Origin: a virus
Taxonomy: Duplodnaviria; Heunggongvirae; Uroviricota; Caudoviricetes
Strand: one strand, 5' to 3'
Length of the DNA stretch: 35,867 nucleotides
IMG/VR virus record: IMGVR_UViG_2648501437_000030
The notes beneath the pieces are model-generated. The model was given only the letters and a program-made list of their open reading frames with translations. It had not been told where the DNA came from and made no database searches. Position 1 is the stretch's first letter, and each line of letters starts with the position of its first letter. A program made the position numbers and the translations under genes. Shown here piece after piece: positions 1 to 35,867 of the stretch.

Positions 1-909
1 ATGGGCTTTACCACAAGAGTAAAAAGCGAAGCGAGCGAGAAGAAACCGTTCAACTTTGCGCTGTTCTGGGATAAATACGGCACCTTTTTTATCCTGGCGA
101 TCATCGTCGCCATTTTTGGTTCGCTGTCGCCAGAATATTTTCTGACCACCAATAATATTACCCAGATTTTTGTTCAAAGCTCCGTGACGGTATTGATCGG
201 CATGGGCGAGTTTTTCGCTATCCTGGTCGCTGGTATCGACCTCTCGGTTGGCGCGATTCTGGCGCTTTCCGGTATGGTGACCGCCAAACTGATGTTGGCA
301 GGTGTTGACCCGTTTCTCGCAGCGATGATTGGCGGTGTACTGGTTGGCGGCGCACTGGGGGCGATCAACGGCTGCCTGGTCAACTGGACGGGGCTACACC
401 CGTTCATCATCACCCTTGGCACCAACGCGATTTTCCGTGGGATCACGCTGGTGATCTCCGATGCCAACTCGGTATACGGCTTCTCCTTTGACTTCGTGAA
501 CTTCTTTGCCGCCAGCGTAATTGGGATACCTGTCCCCGTTATCTTCTCGCTAATTGTCGCGCTCATCCTTTGGTTTCTGACAACGCGTATGCGGCTCGGG
601 CGCAACATCTACGCACTGGGCGGCAACAAAAATTCGGCGTTCTATTCCGGGATTGACGTGAAATTCCACATCCTGGTGGTGTTTATCATCTCTGGTGTTT
701 GTGCAGGTCTGGCAGGCGTCGTCTCAACTGCACGACTCGGTGCCGCAGAACCGCTTGCCGGTATGGGTTTTGAAACCTATGCCATTGCCAGCGCCATCAT
801 TGGCGGCACCAGTTTCTTCGGCGGCAAGGGGCGCATTTTCTCTGTGGTGATTGGCGGGTTGATCATCGGCACCATCAACAACGGTCTGAATATTTTGCAG
901 GTGTATTGA
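1..909 (+). CDS. Sugar ABC transporter inner-membrane permease (AraH/RbsC-type), C-terminally truncated by prophage insertion; last two codons and stop come from the phage end
   Basis: 302-aa polytopic membrane protein with typical permease glycine-rich helices; family members are about 320-340 aa and continue past the NGLN motif, whereas this ORF ends 2 codons into the Mu-like end (CAG|GTG TAT TGA). Confidence 0.8.
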   Translation: MGFTTRVKSEASEKKPFNFALFWDKYGTFFILAIIVAIFGSLSPEYFLTTNNITQIFVQSSVTVLIGMGEFFAILVAGIDLSVGAILALSGMVTAKLMLAGVDPFLAAMIGGVLVGGALGAINGCLVNWTGLHPFIITLGTNAIFRGITLVISDANSVYGFSFDFVNFFAASVIGIPVPVIFSLIVALILWFLTTRMRLGRNIYALGGNKNSAFYSGIDVKFHILVVFIISGVCAGLAGVVSTARLGAAEPLAGMGFETYAIASAIIGGTSFFGGKGRIFSVVIGGLIIGTINNGLNILQVY

Positions 910-1080
910 TTCACGAGAAGTACGAAAAATACCGGGAAGACATTGGATTATTCGGGATTTGACGGGATTTGATTTGGTGGGGCTTGCAAGCCTGTAGAGC
1001 AGATTTTAGTCGTTAAGCCGTGAAACGCGAAAGATTACCAGATAATGGCTTTGTTTCATTAAAAATACGAAAAACAAAAT
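902..1080 (+). repeat. Mu-type left end (attL) with terminal TG and three MuA-binding-type repeats
   Basis: TGTATTGATTCACGAGAAGTACGAAAAA at 902; CGTGAAACGCGAAAG near 1018; GTTTCATTAAAAATACGAAAAAC near 1053; near-identical to the Mu left end as recalled. Confidence 0.75.
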
Positions 1081-12431: not shown

Positions 12432-13963
12432 CACAGATGAACACGTTCAGTGAATACGATGTTCTGCTGCCGTATCAGAAACGCTGGGTGGCGGATGATG
12501 CCGACCTGAAAATTGCCGAGAAATCCCGCCGTACCGGTTTAACCTGGGCGGAGGCGGCAGATGCGGCACTGACGGCATCGCTGAAGAAGGAAGACGGCGG
12601 GCGCGATCACTTTTATATCGGTTCGAATAAGGAGATGGCCCGCGAATTTATCGACGCTGTGGCGATGTGGGCGAAAGCGTTTAATGCGGCAGCGGAAGAA
12701 ATCTGCGAGGAAGTGATCACCGACGAAGACAAGGACATTCTGACGTTCGTCGTGTACTTCGCCAGCGGTTTTAAGGTCAAGGCACTGTCCAGCAACCCGA
12801 GCAACATTCGCGGGATGCAGGGGAATGTCACCATCGACGAGGCCGCGTTCCATGAAAAACTGGACGAGCTGCTGAAGGCTGTGCTGCCGCTGAAAACATG
12901 GGGCGGCAAAATTCGCCTTATTTCCACCCATGACGGCGTGGACAACCTGTTCAACCAGCTGATCCAGGAAAGCCGCGCGGGCAAAAAAGATTACAGCATT
13001 CACACCATCACGCTGGACGACGCCTGCAATGACGGGCTGTACCGACGTATCTGTCAGGTGCGCGGCATGGTGTGGTCACCGGAAGCCGAGGCGGAATGGA
13101 AAGAAGGTCTGCTGCGAAATACCGCCACCCGCGAAGACGCACTGGAGGAATATTACTGCGTCCCGAAAAACGGCGGCGGCACGTATATTCCCCGCTCACT
13201 GCGTGAACGTGCGGCCCGTGGCACCGGAAAAGTGCTGCGCTTTACCGGCACACCGGAATTTAACGCACTGACGGAAAGTCAGCGCCGGGCAGATATCCGG
13301 GAATGGCTGGAAACAGTGGTGCGCCCCGAGCTGGAAAAACTCCCGAAGAACCTGCGCCACTGTCTGGGGGAAGACTTTGCGCGTTCGGGTGACCTGACCG
13401 TACTGGCCCCGGTGACGGTGAACGACGACACCACCCGCCAGGTGCCGTTCCTGGTTGAGCTTGCCAATGTGCCGTTTAAACAGCAGGAACAGGTGCTGTT
13501 CTGGCTTTGCGATCGTCTGCCCCGTCGTGACGGTATCAAAATGGATGCGCGGGGGAATGGTCAGTATCTGGCAGAACAGGCGGCAGAGCGGTACGGCGAT
13601 GAAGTGGAACAGGTGATGCTGTCCGTGGCGTTCTACCGCGAAAACATGCCCCGTTTCCGTGCGGCGTTTGAAGATGATGAGTTGATCCTTCCGAAGCATG
13701 AAGACGTGATCAATGACCTCGGGGCCATTCAGTTGCTGCGTGGCGTTCCAGGCATTGATGATTCACGAACCAAAGGCAGCGACGGCCACAAACGTCACGG
13801 CGACGCCGCTGTGGCCATTTTCCTGGGCTTCCTTGCCAGCAAGGATGACAGCCACCGTTACGAACTGCACCGCCTGAACCGCCCGGCGAAACCGGAAGAA
13901 CGCAACGCGCGCCGCCAGATGAAGCTGACGCGCGGCCTGAAAAATGAGGGAGGTTTACTGTGA
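12428..13963 (+). CDS. Terminase large subunit (Mu gp28-like)
   Basis: 511 aa; conserved position and size; stop overlaps the portal start. Confidence 0.85.
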   Translation: MTQMNTFSEYDVLLPYQKRWVADDADLKIAEKSRRTGLTWAEAADAALTASLKKEDGGRDHFYIGSNKEMAREFIDAVAMWAKAFNAAAEEICEEVITDEDKDILTFVVYFASGFKVKALSSNPSNIRGMQGNVTIDEAAFHEKLDELLKAVLPLKTWGGKIRLISTHDGVDNLFNQLIQESRAGKKDYSIHTITLDDACNDGLYRRICQVRGMVWSPEAEAEWKEGLLRNTATREDALEEYYCVPKNGGGTYIPRSLRERAARGTGKVLRFTGTPEFNALTESQRRADIREWLETVVRPELEKLPKNLRHCLGEDFARSGDLTVLAPVTVNDDTTRQVPFLVELANVPFKQQEQVLFWLCDRLPRRDGIKMDARGNGQYLAEQAAERYGDEVEQVMLSVAFYRENMPRFRAAFEDDELILPKHEDVINDLGAIQLLRGVPGIDDSRTKGSDGHKRHGDAAVAIFLGFLASKDDSHRYELHRLNRPAKPEERNARRQMKLTRGLKNEGGLL

Positions 13964-30596: not shown

Positions 30597-31127
30597 ATGG
30601 AACTCAGAAACGTCACGCGTTATTACCCGGAAGAGATGCCTTATGGTGAAAACATTCAGTATTTCCGCAGTGAAGACGGACAGGATTTTTATGAATCACT
30701 GGATAAATTCACGAAGAAATACAAATTGTGTATTCACCCGGAAACCGGCGTGATTTATTCAATGGCAGAAGACGTGTCCCGTCTTTATCCTGTTGGTTTT
30801 ACCATTGTGGAAGTGGATGAACTGCCGGAGGGTTTTGGCATCGAAGCCAGCTGGTATTACCGGGATGGCGAAGTACTGCCAGTTCCTGTTGATTATTCGA
30901 AACTGGCAGAAAAGCAACGTCAGCGCTTGCTGAATGAAGCAAAGGAAATCACTTCCGACTGGAAAACCGAGCTGGAGCTTGGCACCATCAGTGATGACGA
31001 CAAGGCCCGTCTTACGCAGTGGATGGAATATATCAAAGCGGTAAAGGCGCTGGATTTAAGCACCGTTACTGACGAAGCCTCCTTTAATGCCATCAACTGG
31101 CCGGAGCGTCCCGATGCCGCAGCTTAA
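30597..31127 (+). CDS. Tail fibre assembly protein (Mu U / Tfa-like)
   Basis: 176 aa from ATG 30597 (RBS AAGGAG); Tfa-type organisation. Confidence 0.75.
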   Translation: MELRNVTRYYPEEMPYGENIQYFRSEDGQDFYESLDKFTKKYKLCIHPETGVIYSMAEDVSRLYPVGFTIVEVDELPEGFGIEASWYYRDGEVLPVPVDYSKLAEKQRQRLLNEAKEITSDWKTELELGTISDDDKARLTQWMEYIKAVKALDLSTVTDEASFNAINWPERPDAAA

Positions 31128-33711
31128 AGGTGTGATTAAAACGCCCACGGGAGAACCGCTGGGCGGCGCAACCATTACACTGACCTCCCTGCACAACCGT
31201 GCAGGGATTCTGAAAGGTGTTTTCAGTCACGTCACCACACAGAATGGGGAATATAACTTCCCCGTTCTGCCGGGCGTGTACAGCGTTCGCCTGACGCAGA
31301 GTGTACAGCGCCTTTCAGAAATCGGTGTCATCCGCGTTTATGAAGATTCAGCGGATGGTTCGCTGAATGATTTTCTGGGCGCAACCGATATTGACCTGCG
31401 CCCGGAATCCCTGAAGAAATACGAGGAACTGGCACAGCAGGCGCAGCAGAGCGCGGAAGCCGCAGCAGAAAGCGAGCAGCAGGCAGGGCAACATGCAGAC
31501 GCTGCCGCCCGGGAAAAAGAAGAGGTAAAAAACCTGGCGGAAGGTGTTCAGCAGAACGCCGACGCGGTTGCGGAGGGTAAACAACAGGTCGAAACTCTGG
31601 CCTCAGAAGTTGGGCAGAATGCCGCCGCGGCAGCCATGAGTGCTCAGGAGGCGAAAGACGCAGCCGGGCATGTGCAGGGATTCATTCATGACCACCTTTC
31701 AGTATCAACCCGTTATTCGGTAACAGAGGCGAACCGTCAGCTACAGGCGTTGAGGATAAACAGCGGGCGCTACGAGGGGCTGTGGCGCTACCTGAATGCG
31801 AACGGTGGTATCAACTGGTATTTTCTGTTTCTTGCCGTGTATGAAAGTGAAGGAAAATGCTTTTCCCTCAGTGACCGTATGACAATTTGCGAAAAGGCGT
31901 TAAGACTGGGGCTTGTGGTTCCGTTTATGACAGGTTGCCGTTATGAAGCCGGGCAGCGCCTGACAATAGACGGCACGCTCTTTTTTGTTAATATCGCGGG
32001 CACCACCGGGGAAACGTTGCCTGATATCACCTCTGTAGCCCCCGGAGATTTTGTCCGGACTGGCTCCGCTGTGCTGGAGTGCCTGAAAAGCCCCTCAAAC
32101 CGAATCCCGGCTGCATGGCAGTATTTTTTTCTGGATGTGGCTCCGGATTTGTATACCCCCGTTGCGCCGGACTCCACGGACAGCTACCCGGCGCTCTGGT
32201 TCGCCTGCATTGCTGAATTTGCGGACAGTGCCTGGTTACAGGAGCCAGCCGGAATCGGCGGGTCCAGCCGCTGGGAAATCATAAAACAGGTGGCAAAGTT
32301 CAATATCGTTGCTGAAATAAATCCGGTGGCCAGTCTGGTAAACGTATTCCAGCACAATCTTGCACCCGGTGACCGGGCTTATGCACAGTGTTTTTGTCAG
32401 GATAACGCAGAGGTTTATGCTGGTTTACGTGCACTGAAAACACTGGCTGACCTTGCCGGAGATACCACTGCTGCAACTGAATATACCGCTGCCATGAAAA
32501 CCATCAGGGCTGGCCTGCTTGCGTTGTTTGTACCTGAACAAAAACGGTTCCTGACGTATTACAACGAGACGGATTACCCGGCAGAGCCTGGTGAAGGGCG
32601 TTTTGTTGATAAGGACCGTTTTTCTGTGGCCCCGTGGCGCTTTGGGGTGCTGGAAACACAGGAAGAAGTGGAACGGTACGGCAGGCAGGTTCTGGACGCC
32701 ATACAGAGTGCTTACCCGGACCTGTTCACGGCAAATTACGACGGCATTGATACGTTTGCCATGAGTGATTTTTTTGCTTTTGTGGCAAAGGTTACCACTT
32801 CTCAGACGGCAGCCACGGCTGCCATCAGACGCCTGCAAATCCGGGCGACATCTGCCGTCACGGTGGCCGACGTTGCCGCCGCCATATCCGTTACAGCCTG
32901 GGGAAAAATCCCACAGTTTCGTGCCTGTGATTTTATGCGCATCAACGGGCATTCCGTGCTCGGAGGGGGCGATATCACGCTGGGCGCGGCGACCACAATG
33001 GAGCCACAGAGTGATATTCGCGACAGGACGGAAGGCAGGCTGGCACTTCCCGATGCCTTCGGTTTTGGGCGTATATTCAACACAAACGAAACTGTCCGCT
33101 TTGACTCAGAAAATGATTTTCTGGTGTGGGTAAAACAGGTCACGCCAGGAGAATATTTTGTTGAGGGTGGCAATAAAATTATACCCAATGTGCTGTTCAG
33201 CGGGATTGTCAGTATTCGGTGGATTGAGTCCAGATATGCCACACCGAGTCCGATAAATACAGCAAAGGCGATTATTTTCTATGGTGTTAATGGCCACATT
33301 TATTACAACCGCTACTGGACCACAGGAAATGGTTATCTCATTGACTGGGAATCACTGAAGGTAACCTCGCAGGACATTATTGCTCTTCTGTCCGGCCTTG
33401 CTCCCGGAACTACAGATACCTGGTACGGCACTGGCAGCCTGATACTGGCGGCATATAACGGCCAGGGAAACGCAGACCCGGACCGCAGAATAAAGCGAGG
33501 TTACAGCTATCCTGGGTCACGTCTGAGTGCGGTTGAATTGATGTGTTACGGTACGACCGGGACCGGGGTTAAATACAACGGCAGTGTTTCTGTGTATGTT
33601 CAGGGTTCCGGTGGCGGAATGCCAGGCACATACCGGGCATTGTCGGGGAATGGACTGGGGTCTGCCGGTTCCGCCAGCGTCATGATTGGTCTGTTTATAC
33701 GAGTTGCGTAG
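31114..33711 (+). CDS. Lambda-Stf-like side tail fibre/tailspike with large central domain of unknown (possibly enzymatic) function
   Basis: 866 aa from ATG 31114; N-terminal domain (...VYSVRLTQ...IRVYEDSADGSLNDFLGA) matches lambda Stf family N-termini, then Ala/Gln/Glu-rich coiled coil, about 500 aa globular region, Gly-rich C-terminus. Confidence 0.75.
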   Translation: MPQLKGVIKTPTGEPLGGATITLTSLHNRAGILKGVFSHVTTQNGEYNFPVLPGVYSVRLTQSVQRLSEIGVIRVYEDSADGSLNDFLGATDIDLRPESLKKYEELAQQAQQSAEAAAESEQQAGQHADAAAREKEEVKNLAEGVQQNADAVAEGKQQVETLASEVGQNAAAAAMSAQEAKDAAGHVQGFIHDHLSVSTRYSVTEANRQLQALRINSGRYEGLWRYLNANGGINWYFLFLAVYESEGKCFSLSDRMTICEKALRLGLVVPFMTGCRYEAGQRLTIDGTLFFVNIAGTTGETLPDITSVAPGDFVRTGSAVLECLKSPSNRIPAAWQYFFLDVAPDLYTPVAPDSTDSYPALWFACIAEFADSAWLQEPAGIGGSSRWEIIKQVAKFNIVAEINPVASLVNVFQHNLAPGDRAYAQCFCQDNAEVYAGLRALKTLADLAGDTTAATEYTAAMKTIRAGLLALFVPEQKRFLTYYNETDYPAEPGEGRFVDKDRFSVAPWRFGVLETQEEVERYGRQVLDAIQSAYPDLFTANYDGIDTFAMSDFFAFVAKVTTSQTAATAAIRRLQIRATSAVTVADVAAAISVTAWGKIPQFRACDFMRINGHSVLGGGDITLGAATTMEPQSDIRDRTEGRLALPDAFGFGRIFNTNETVRFDSENDFLVWVKQVTPGEYFVEGGNKIIPNVLFSGIVSIRWIESRYATPSPINTAKAIIFYGVNGHIYYNRYWTTGNGYLIDWESLKVTSQDIIALLSGLAPGTTDTWYGTGSLILAAYNGQGNADPDRRIKRGYSYPGSRLSAVELMCYGTTGTGVKYNGSVSVYVQGSGGGMPGTYRALSGNGLGSAGSASVMIGLFIRVA

Positions 33712-33718
33712 GTGATTT

Positions 33719-34285
33719 ATGGAAGTAAAAAAAATCGAAAATGCGCGCTGGCTGGAAAGCGGCGCGATTGACTGCGACGTATTGTTTGAGGGGATGGACG
33801 AGGCCCTGCCGTATACAGCGACAGCAGACGATACCGCACCGACGGGCCAGCAAATCTGGCAGGAACTGCAAAGTGGCAAATGGGGTGAAATCGCCCCGTT
33901 TACAGTCACGCCTGAACTTATCGCAGCGGCAAAAGATGCCAAAAAGATGGAAATCGAGGCGTGGCGCACAGAACAGGAGGCACTGCCGTTCACGTTCGAA
34001 TGGAATGGCCGCACCTGGAATGCTGGCCCCGACTCAATGGCCCGTCTTTATCCGGTAGTAATGGCGGCGAAATCCGATACGGCACGAACCACCCTTGCGT
34101 GGGGTGATGCCGATAATCAACAGGTGAAACTGTCAATGCCGGAACTGGAAGAACTGGCGACAGCAATGGCGCAGGCACAGGTCGATCGCAATGACGAGAT
34201 TTATCAGCGCCAGCGTGAAATGAAGGAGCAGCTTTCCCGGCTGTCCATACTGGACGAGGTGAGAGCGTTATCGGTGATTAAATAA
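33719..34285 (+). CDS. Tail fibre assembly chaperone-like protein (DUF4376-type)
   Basis: 188 aa immediately downstream of the Stf-like gene; FEWNGRTWNAGPDSMARL motif typical of fibre-adjacent chaperone-like proteins. Confidence 0.6.
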   Translation: MEVKKIENARWLESGAIDCDVLFEGMDEALPYTATADDTAPTGQQIWQELQSGKWGEIAPFTVTPELIAAAKDAKKMEIEAWRTEQEALPFTFEWNGRTWNAGPDSMARLYPVVMAAKSDTARTTLAWGDADNQQVKLSMPELEELATAMAQAQVDRNDEIYQRQREMKEQLSRLSILDEVRALSVIK

Positions 34286-34303
34286 TCAGTTTGTATAGTT
34301 TAT

Positions 34304-34331
34304 GACGATCGATAACATCATATCGATCGTC
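34304..34331. promoter_or_regulatory. Perfect 11-bp inverted repeat with two GATC sites upstream of com/mom
   Basis: GACGATCGATA-acatca-TATCGATCGTC, GATC at 34307..34310 and 34325..34328, about 75 bp upstream of the com start. Confidence 0.45.
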
Positions 34332-34404
34332 GGTTTGCATCAGTTGTGATTAAATACCCCCAGCCCTCCGGGCGGTCATGTCTGGTTATTACACAGGGGG
34401 AATC

Positions 34405-34590
34405 ATGGACTCTGTTCGCTGTAAAAACTGCAATAAATTACTGTTTAAAGGAGGTTTTAAGCATATAGAAATTAAATGCCCTCGCTGTAAACGTTACATT
34501 GTCATATCGAATGCCAAAGAGCATCCCACGGAGCTGTATTGTGGGAAAAGAGAAGAAATCACGCATTCTGACAAAACCCTGCGTTATTGA
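34405..34590 (+). CDS. com: Com zinc-finger translational activator of mom
   Basis: 61 aa from ATG 34405 (RBS AGGGGG); ...[26 protein letters not shown]... near-identical to Mu Com as recalled. Confidence 0.85.
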
Positions 34591-35245
34591 GTATGAAGGC
34601 CGGATTGTCGGCTATGGTTCAAGGGAGTTGCGCGTTGAAACCATATCCTGTTGGCTGGCCCGCACAATCATTCAGACAAAACACTATTCCCGCCGTTTTG
34701 TGAATAACTCCTACCTGCATCTGGGCGTATTCAGCGGACGTGATCTGGTTGGCGTTCTTCAGTGGGGATATGCCCTTAACCCCAACTCAGGGCGTCGTGT
34801 TGTGCTGGAAACGGATAACCGGAGCTATATGGAACTGAACCGCATGTGGTTACACGACGACATGCCCCGCAACTCTGAATCACGGGCCATCAGCTACGCG
34901 CTAAAAACCATCAGACTACTGTATCCGTCAGTGGAGTGGGTTCAGTCTTTTGCCGACGAACGCTGCGGACGCGCTGGTGTGGTATATCAGGCGTCGAATT
35001 TTGATTTTATTGGCAGCCATGAAAGCACGTTCTACGAGCTGGATGGTGAGTGGTATCACGAGATAACGATGAACGCGATTAAGCGTGGAGGGCAACGAGG
35101 CGTGTATTTGCGGGCTAATAAGGAGCGGGCCGTGGTACACAAATTTAATCAGTATCGCTACATCAGGTTCCTGAATAAGCGCGCAAAAAAGCGACTAAAC
35201 ACTAAGCTATTCAGGATTCAGCCATACCCCAAAAACACATCTTGA
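34511..35245 (+). CDS. mom: Mom DNA-modification enzyme (adenine N6 carbamoylmethyl-type modification); start codon uncertain
   Basis: ORF open from 34499 (TTG); in-frame ATG 34511 and GTG 34541; overlaps the 3-prime end of com; sequence closely matches Mu Mom as recalled. Confidence 0.85.
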
Positions 35246-35271
35246 TTTGTATCAAATAATTTTGTCATGCC

Positions 35272-35300
35272 TTGCTTGAAAAAATTTATCGTTTTATAAA
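35272..35300 (+). promoter_or_regulatory. Candidate sigma70 promoter for the post-mom cargo gene
   Basis: TTGCTT, 17-bp spacer, TATAAA, about 65 bp upstream of the 35364 start; AT-rich context. Confidence 0.4.
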
Positions 35301-35363
35301 CATATACATGGAGAATTCCTGGTTCTCTTTAAATTTTACTTTGGTTCAGAATAGGAAATTTTT

Positions 35364-35867
35364 ATGATGCGCAAAGCTCTCAAGATGGTCCTTATTACTA
35401 CAGCGATAATCTCACCAATAGCGCAGGCACAATGGCTAACCCAAACCGAAGATGACTTGTTTTCTGATGGTAAAAAGGCAGCGATGATTGGTGAAACGTC
35501 ATCTGACAATAGTGCGATCATTTTCAATTGTACAAAAAATACTCTTACCGCTGCATACGTGGAGATGGACAAAACACACGAATCAACAGCCAAAATGCCA
35601 ATGGAGTTGGTGATGAAAGTTGATGGAAATAACGCACTCAAATTTAACGCAACGCTTTCAAGAAGGAACGTGCAAGCTCTCGAAATTGCAACTAATGATG
35701 CTGAACAACTCAAAATTCTTCTCAAACAACTGAAGGAAGCCAAATCTCAAGTATTGGTTGGCGCGCAAACAGAAGATGGCGGCAGCAAATTTTCCCTTTC
35801 TGCTAATGTGTCCGGCTCAACTTCTGCTGTTAATAAGTTTGTAGCGGCATGTGAAATAAAATTGTAA
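35364..35867 (+). CDS. Exported protein of unknown function (cleavable signal peptide), cargo gene downstream of mom
   Basis: 167 aa, RBS AGGAAA; signal-like N-terminus MMRKALKMVLITTAIISPIAQAQ; two Cys in mature part; lower GC than phage core; stop at the last base of the window. Confidence 0.6.
   Translation: MMRKALKMVLITTAIISPIAQAQWLTQTEDDLFSDGKKAAMIGETSSDNSAIIFNCTKNTLTAAYVEMDKTHESTAKMPMELVMKVDGNNALKFNATLSRRNVQALEIATNDAEQLKILLKQLKEAKSQVLVGAQTEDGGSKFSLSANVSGSTSAVNKFVAACEIKL

Follow-up and report, generated by a model that had tools for sequence, protein, structure and literature searches.

The genome of bacteriophage Mu ends 115 bp after the stop codon of the mom gene. In the Mu-type phages D108 and PhiR68_1, one more gene stands between mom and the sites of the right end (attR), namely gene 56, annotated as encoding the 148-amino-acid (aa) “D108-specific protein” gp56. 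Accessory genes of the kind known as morons are exemplified by bor of phage lambda, which is located between the lysis genes and cos. Among exported bacterial proteins, IalB promotes erythrocyte invasion (PMC6299047), and in Sinorhizobium the periplasmic protein RgsG is essential and situated at the growing cell pole (PMC7327166). The present work concerns a gene for a 167-aa protein that directly follows mom in a Mu-like prophage, contained in a stretch of 35,867 nucleotides (IMG/VR virus record IMGVR_UViG_2648501437_000030, Caudoviricetes) that we will refer to as “the window”. This open reading frame (ORF), hereafter the cargo ORF, occupies positions 35364-35867 on the + strand, its stop codon closing with the last base of the window. 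The explanation that best accounts for the observations jointly, and that we consider very probable, is that it is a single-gene moron placed between mom and attR of an active Mu-like prophage, whose product would act in the envelope as a lysogenic-conversion factor. Nothing was found in the literature on this gene, on the mom-attR slot, or on phage-borne IalB-like proteins.

The right end of the prophage and the slot after mom

Another 188 bp separate the window from the end of the prophage, and the cargo ORF is part of the transposing unit; this is firmly shown, since those 188 bp are identical at 10 insertion sites, MuA sites stand at the end, and the target duplications are perfect. Over its last 12.6 kb, the window matches a prophage of Escherichia coli strain RM11911 at 100% identity, and the RM11911 record therefore stands in for the sequence past the window; features beyond position 35867 are taken from this copy and given in window-equivalent coordinates. 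The RM11911 prophage is inserted in gspE and that of strain XJ34 in mdtO; the two agree base for base over the 188 bp that follow the ORF stop, down to a final TTTTCGTGCGCCGCCTCA, and diverge from there on. The same 188 bp are found without change in 13 loci representing the 10 insertion sites (pta, otsB, ppsA and sufB among them), each followed by different host genes. The prophage terminus reads ...GCCGCCTCA and is succeeded by host DNA, with perfect 5-bp target duplications in both complete copies (TCCCG/TCCCG and GCGTT/GCGTT). Homology to Mu resumes at 35950, and over its final ~105 bp the sequence can be aligned to the Mu and D108 right ends, including the sites R3 (35984-36000, + strand), R2 (36007-36023, - strand) and R1 (36029-36045, - strand), all of them matching the MuA consensus with 0 mismatches, up to the terminal CA at 36055 (...GCGCCGCCTCA in the RM11911 copy). 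The distance from the mom stop to the right end is thus 810 bp, which corrects the end of this prophage from the ~115 bp expected after mom. No further gene is present between the cargo ORF and attR in the 188 bp of the RM11911 copy, and the cargo is therefore one gene and not the first of a locus. The right junction with alsC, the gene interrupted at the left end of the prophage, gave no match in a search of species-representative genomes. As a side observation, a terminator-like hairpin with a T-run lies on the minus strand just inside attR (12714-12739 of locus L001, window-equivalent 35959-35984), pointing into the prophage from its right end; it is conserved with the Mu sequence, and could block read-in transcription from the host gene.

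The junction between mom and attR is firmly shown to be a recurrent cargo slot of Mu-type phages. A mom gene at ≥90% identity is present in 95 of the 5426 complete E. coli genomes searched, while the cargo gene occurs in only 5 of them; the whole 622 bp that follow mom in the window (35246-35867) are likewise found in 5/5426 genomes, always directly after mom. Eight prophages were sampled from the 95 mom-bearing genomes: four have the Mu arrangement (115 bp), three have a different end of ~80 bp, and one (2014C-3075) has a 773-bp slot with a gene for 111 aa. Where a sampled prophage has a Mu-type end, this end lies 115, 583, 773 or 810 bp after the mom stop. The 111-aa hypothetical protein of E. 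coli 2014C-3075 (WP_050486066.1; NZ_CP027447.1, locus L038 2592-2927) is the third cargo known for the slot, next to gp56 and the 167-aa protein, and matches no Pfam or PHROG family. Compared by BLASTP with each of the other two, the 167-aa protein is unrelated to both the 148-aa and the 111-aa cargo (E 0.67 and 7.6, respectively). All three proteins begin with a signal-peptide-like N-terminus, as read from their sequences, and the slot has a GC content of ~38-39% in all three cargo-bearing prophages. The left boundary of the slot is also identical in them: the ~18 bp past the mom stop (35246-35263, + strand; TTTGTATCAAATAATTTT) are shared, being common to D108 and to the 2014C-3075 and STEC388-type prophages, and divergence starts thereafter. 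The slot has, in consequence, at least four states, and each cargo seen so far encodes a small protein with predicted export.

A separate observation concerns the E. coli Mu-like prophages of STEC388, TD225-C4 and S6, whose terminal sequence is of another kind and is reached ~80 bp after mom (loci L035-L037, ~2450-2530). This alternative end is made up of GGTATCAAA(A/T)AATTT repeats and terminates in ...GCGCGCTTTA, without Mu-type R sites. Its first repeat matches GTATCAAATAATTTT (35249-35263), situated just past mom in the window and in D108, which may be a fossil of the alternative end type. The genome of E. coli STEC388 (NZ_CP041425.1) matches mom in four separate places, suggestive of either several copies of Mu-like prophages or recent transposition.

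A preliminary description of this DNA, made from the window alone, had taken as its point of departure that Mu ends within roughly 100-150 bp of mom, which the 115 bp measured in Mu bear out; its wider premise that Mu-type phages generally stop right after mom does not hold, as D108 and PhiR68_1 carry gp56 there. It had reported no inverted copy of the left-end repeats in the ~620 bp after mom, and a scan of 35246-35867 with the MuA-site consensus YMYNWRAARYRCGAAAR (both strands, up to 2 mismatches) agrees, returning 0 matches on either strand. The extension to the right that it proposed has recovered the inverted R sites and the terminal CA in RM11911, together with 5-bp duplications in the two complete copies. 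Its expectation that the module continues past the window was correct as regards the 188 bp to the true end, and mistaken in anticipating more genes, since only a hairpin within a donor remnant and R3/R2/R1 are found there. The suggestion that the ORF opens an exclusion or defence-type locus finds no support, the cargo being a single gene with 0 PADLOC matches.

The cargo gene, its origin and its product

The 167-aa cargo ORF is a real gene, because it is under constraint (ratio of non-synonymous to synonymous substitution, dN/dS, 0.04-0.16 against orthologues in enterobacterial copies), a profile search retrieves 246 cluster representatives, and its AlphaFold model reaches a predicted local distance difference test (pLDDT) value of 93.5. 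An antisense ORF of 135 aa (35336..35743) was considered and rejected as a shadow of the conserved sense ORF. The GC content of the cargo ORF is 41.3% (38% at third codon positions) versus 54.4% for the prophage; just 2.4% of the 504-bp segments of the prophage are as GC-poor, all of them at the left end. Even lower is that of the 118-bp spacer between mom and the ORF (35246-35363, 25.4%), whose part beyond the shared boundary constitutes the AT-rich 5' region of the gene (35264..35363, + strand), with a candidate promoter at 35272-35300 and a ribosome-binding site, AGGA, at 35353-35356. The candidate promoter consists of TTGCTT (35272-35277) and TATAAA (35295-35300) separated by 17 nucleotides, fits the consensus at 3/6 and 5/6 positions, and lacks the T at -7. 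There is no terminator-like site on the + strand between mom and the cargo ORF, and Rfam has no match between mom and attR.

By its distribution and composition, the gene has the marks of a moron: it is absent at the same position from Mu and from the four sampled prophages with a 115-bp slot, and its composition deviates. As regards a promoter and a terminator of its own, only the weak TTGCTT-17-TATAAA candidate and a stable hairpin without a U-tract can be pointed out, the latter having an 11-bp stem (window-equivalent 35895-35923, z = -4.3) and lying inside the donor remnant described below. The preliminary description had presented the ORF as a signal-peptide gene of lower GC and as a horizontally acquired moron between mom and attR; both statements are sustained by the figures given above, that is, 41.3% versus 54.4% GC with a Sec-type signal legible in the translation, presence in 5/5426 genomes, and the true end 188 bp past the ORF. 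Taken alone, the cargo gene is an ordinary moron, which brings neither a new mechanism nor a multi-gene system.

The insert relative to Mu measures ~686 bp (window-equivalent 35264-35949) and comprises the AT-rich 5' region, the 167-aa ORF and the remnant of a donor gene. Close homologues of the protein (63-71% identity) are found in Enterobacter, Citrobacter and related lambdoid prophages; in 35 of 38 IMG/VR loci the lambdoid homologue is a lone gene in opposite orientation, flanked by the small-terminase gene and by a convergent gene of 216 aa belonging to PHROG 1924 (labelled minor tail protein). DNA similarity between the Mu-like copy and these lambdoid homologues extends over the part coding for the mature protein and ~55-60 bp downstream, and those ~55-60 bp past the ORF stop are the remnant of the 3' end of the convergent PHROG 1924 gene. 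Of 2000 shuffles, 0-3 attain the score of the downstream similarity, which is consistent over 32 IMG/VR loci. On this DNA similarity, the donor is firmly shown to be a lambdoid-type prophage. In the simplest history, the ORF and a stub of its neighbour would have been captured from such a prophage by illegitimate recombination into the mom-attR slot, as the remnant belongs to a gene that always adjoins the ORF homologues there. Searches of GenBank phages with the DNA and with tblastn gave no match to the region or its protein.

The product starts with a signal peptide of 22 codons (35364..35429, + strand), which reads MMRKALK / MVLITTAIISPI / AQA followed by QW, is of the Sec type, and has its predicted cleavage point between AQA and QW. 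The junction is kept in the family alignments as A-x-A before (Q/D)W, and export by Sec with cleavage after AQA is a well-supported inference from these features. The predicted mature protein (35430..35867, + strand, stop codon included) has 145 aa, 15.7 kDa and an isoelectric point of 5.45. A hidden Markov model (HMM) match to PHROG 19473 runs end to end (E 8e-66, residues 5-167 on profile positions 5-167 of 167), and nearly all of the 246 cluster representatives, collected at E≤0.001, have 160-175 aa; the named family members are all labelled “hypothetical”. Residues W24 and C56 are invariant, and D31, F33, D87, G133 and C163 nearly so; as two conserved cysteines in an exported protein, C56 and C163 likely form a disulfide. 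This is therefore a sizeable family, named in no database and now provided with a confident predicted fold, whose members temperate phages keep acquiring.

In the AlphaFold model obtained with a 101-sequence alignment (pLDDT 93.5, predicted template modelling score 0.85), used instead of one built with 10 sequences (pLDDT 56), the signal helix is followed by nine strands and two helices. A compact domain, rich in beta structure, with two helices and an IalB-like fold, is well supported by this model, whose best structural match is IalB (PDB 3dtd), and which has the IalB fold. At the sequence level, PF06776 has no HMM match to the protein at E≤10, nor is it among the 25 families shown of the 63 matched by the 101 members; two iterated profile searches did not bridge the family to PF06776 and gave no hit with a Pfam annotation, and a profile search of PDB sequences gave chance hits only. 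Weak Pfam hits to Pertactin and VasI fell below threshold and were treated as chance. The protein is, in short, IalB-like in fold and outside the IalB family by sequence. The PADLOC-DB defence models gave 0 families at E≤10. The profile and structure searches called for in the preliminary description have accordingly been productive in part, yielding PHROG 19473 and the IalB-like fold, with no Pfam, NCBIfam or PADLOC family and nothing significant from Foldseek against the PDB.

Possible roles of the exported protein

In the explanation that we favour, the protein would be a lysogenic-conversion factor at work in the lysogen's periplasm or envelope. This role is preferred because a soluble periplasmic protein has been repeatedly adopted by temperate phages, is usually placed for expression apart from the late genes, and has neighbours acting in the periplasm. 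Broadly, the genomic contexts of the family are diverse: besides the lambdoid loci, one member is found beside GemA and Mor among the early genes of a distant Mu-like phage, others are inside myovirus tail modules on the opposite strand, another adjoins a CI-like repressor, one is on a plasmid-like Bradyrhizobium contig, and one belongs to an Acidiphilium locus of small genes including a toxin-antitoxin-like pair. In Enterobacter roggenkampii prophages (loci L009/L010, 8508-10415), the accessory cluster of the homologue codes for a lysozyme inhibitor of the Ivy family (60 bits against a cutoff of 21) and for a protein with a TolA C-terminal domain (41 bits against 25); an Acb2/Tad1-like gene is seen further along in L009. 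Expression in the window prophage could come from the weak promoter of the gene itself or from read-through of the late mom transcript, the latter being possible because no terminator-like site separates mom from the ORF. We tentatively propose that the protein may bind an envelope component and hinder the entry of competing phages or colicins (superinfection exclusion). Somewhat more doubtful is the broader proposal of an unnamed, widespread family of IalB-fold periplasmic proteins, captured repeatedly by at least three phage backbones (Mu-like, lambdoid and other myovirus-type) and constituting a new anti-entry factor, with the mom-attR junction, where three unrelated signal-peptide proteins occur, as a dedicated hotspot. 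In any case, the repeated uptake by temperate phages makes the family a reasonable candidate for exclusion or envelope phenotype screens.

Several observations weigh against the role favoured here. The candidate promoter is weak, and no sigma-70 site is predicted after mom by a promoter scanner; the AT-rich spacer of the preliminary description is real (25.4% GC) and its motif present, and the qualification of the promoter as good was overstated. The upstream region of the cargo gene has no significant similarity to those of its homologues, the promoter not having been kept with the gene, and expression in the lysogen is, for both reasons, putative. Some distant members are chromosomal in Alphaproteobacteria, therefore the fold is not intrinsically an anti-phage device. 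Signal-peptide cleavage and the disulfide are predictions read from the sequence. Foldseek did not recover the IalB match from the PDB, where nothing was significant (TEAD and Kir at template modelling (TM) scores <0.3), and BFVD gave only uncharacterised phage proteins at TM ~0.5; Pfam, NCBIfam and PADLOC had no match for the protein. Moreover, IalB-domain proteins are themselves exported envelope proteins without an established molecular mechanism (PMC6299047, PMC7327166).

Other roles have to be weighed against the same evidence. The protein might benefit the bacterium in an animal host as a fitness or virulence factor, in the manner of lambda Bor or Bartonella IalB, instead of acting against phages; we regard this as rather doubtful. 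The lambdoid homologues, oppositely oriented, lie where bor does in lambda, with the lysis genes on one side and cos on the other, cattle are among the sources of the carrier strains, and the best structural match is IalB, implicated in erythrocyte invasion (PMC6299047). On the other hand, the family reaches environmental and alphaproteobacterial phages and chromosomes with no link to an animal host, the protein has no sequence-level membership of the IalB family, and as a predicted soluble periplasmic protein it lacks a lipobox or an outer-membrane anchor for surface display. That the protein inhibits, from the periplasm, a hydrolase such as a lysozyme (those of phage tails included) or a serine protease is an unlikely alternative to which the neighbours of some homologues nevertheless point. 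One is the Ivy-family inhibitor with which the homologue shares an accessory cluster in the Enterobacter prophages. In Mesorhizobium sp., a distant member of 197 aa has four genes for trypsin-like serine proteases around it and one for a caspase-like peptidase close by (locus L029, 3308-8198), which could hint at a protease-related role, although at a single locus. The small, disulfide-bonded, periplasmic and beta-rich architecture predicted here is also typical of such inhibitors; periplasmic lysozyme inhibitors (Ivy and other Pfam inhibitor families) gave neither a Pfam nor a fold match.

A late lytic-cycle function, with the gene co-transcribed with com-mom from Pmom and aiding the phage, for instance in envelope steps of lysis or release, appears very unlikely. 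It would agree with the orientation shared with mom, with the lack of a + strand terminator-like site in between, and with the lack of a convincing promoter of its own, but fits poorly with most other phages, where the homologue runs counter to the late genes or is placed among the early ones; furthermore, Mu and most of its E. coli relatives do without the gene. Finally, the preliminary description had itself raised the scenario that would undo its reading, namely that the ORF and the downstream DNA are conserved host chromosome and that 35246-35363 conceals a degenerate phage end. The resemblance of 35249-35263 to the first repeat of the ~80-bp STEC388-type right end speaks in its favour; against it, the ORF is present in 5/5426 genomes and always after mom, the host flanks of the 10 independent insertions differ from 188 bp beyond the ORF onwards, the target duplications are perfect, and 35246-35867 contains no MuA sites. 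This scenario is thereby refuted, and its probability is practically negligible.

Other features of the window and comparison with described systems

The first 901 positions of the window are part of the E. coli D-allose permease gene alsC, which a Mu-type left end interrupts at 902. The pentanucleotide GCAGG at 897..901, within alsC, would be the left copy of the target-site duplication, as expected from the identical prophage copies with perfect 5-bp duplications. The left end (902..1073, + strand), located by the MuA-site consensus scan, starts with TGTATTGATTCAC... and has consensus matches for L1 (912-928), L2 (1017-1033) and L3 (1057-1073). At the other extreme, com, the translational activator of mom, lies at 34405..34590 (+ strand) according to the RefSeq annotation of the 100% identical RM11911 prophage, and mom, the last gene in common with Mu, at 34511..35245 (+ strand) according to its ORF and the same annotation. 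The mom region has ~88-89% nucleotide identity with Mu, D108 and SfMu, in alignments that stop at 35232-35263; mom ends slightly earlier here than in D108 through a one-base difference (TCT TGA versus TCT GAT TAG; 35237-35245 compared with 1145-1153 of locus L013). The prophage has neither a Gin invertase nor an invertible G segment, and tblastn with the Gin protein of a related prophage as query gave no match in the window. Directly before com there are an 874-aa tail-fibre ORF (prophage tail-fibre N-terminal type) and a DUF4376 gene (31087-34378), while the sister copies in loci L020 and L025 have a 577-aa fibre in their place and are devoid of DUF4376.

Among the described systems, the right end of Mu is the closest counterpart of the end found here, sharing the terminal ~105 bp, three MuA sites in the same arrangement (R3 inverted), the terminal CA and 5-bp duplications, and differing in that it lies 115 bp and not 810 bp from the mom stop. 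D108 gp56 (PHROG 15648), also found in PhiR68_1, is the nearest parallel of the cargo: a single small gene with a signal-peptide-like start and low GC (0.38), sharing its orientation as well as its slot (from mom to the attR sites), preceded by the same ~18 bp after the mom stop; it has no sequence similarity to the 167-aa protein (BLASTP E 0.67) and belongs to another PHROG. With lambda-type morons such as bor, the gene has in common that it is absent from the nearest relatives, deviates in composition, and has solitary, oppositely oriented homologues in lambdoid prophages, with the terminase genes to one side and the lysis-side genes to the other; the classic signature of a promoter and a terminator of its own is only weakly present, and Bor is a lipoprotein, whereas the protein described here has a signal of the SPase-I type without a lipobox and no sequence relationship with it. 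As for IalB (invasion-associated locus B; PF06776, COG5342; PDB 3dtd), the likeness lies in the predicted fold, and the difference in a sequence identity of 10%.
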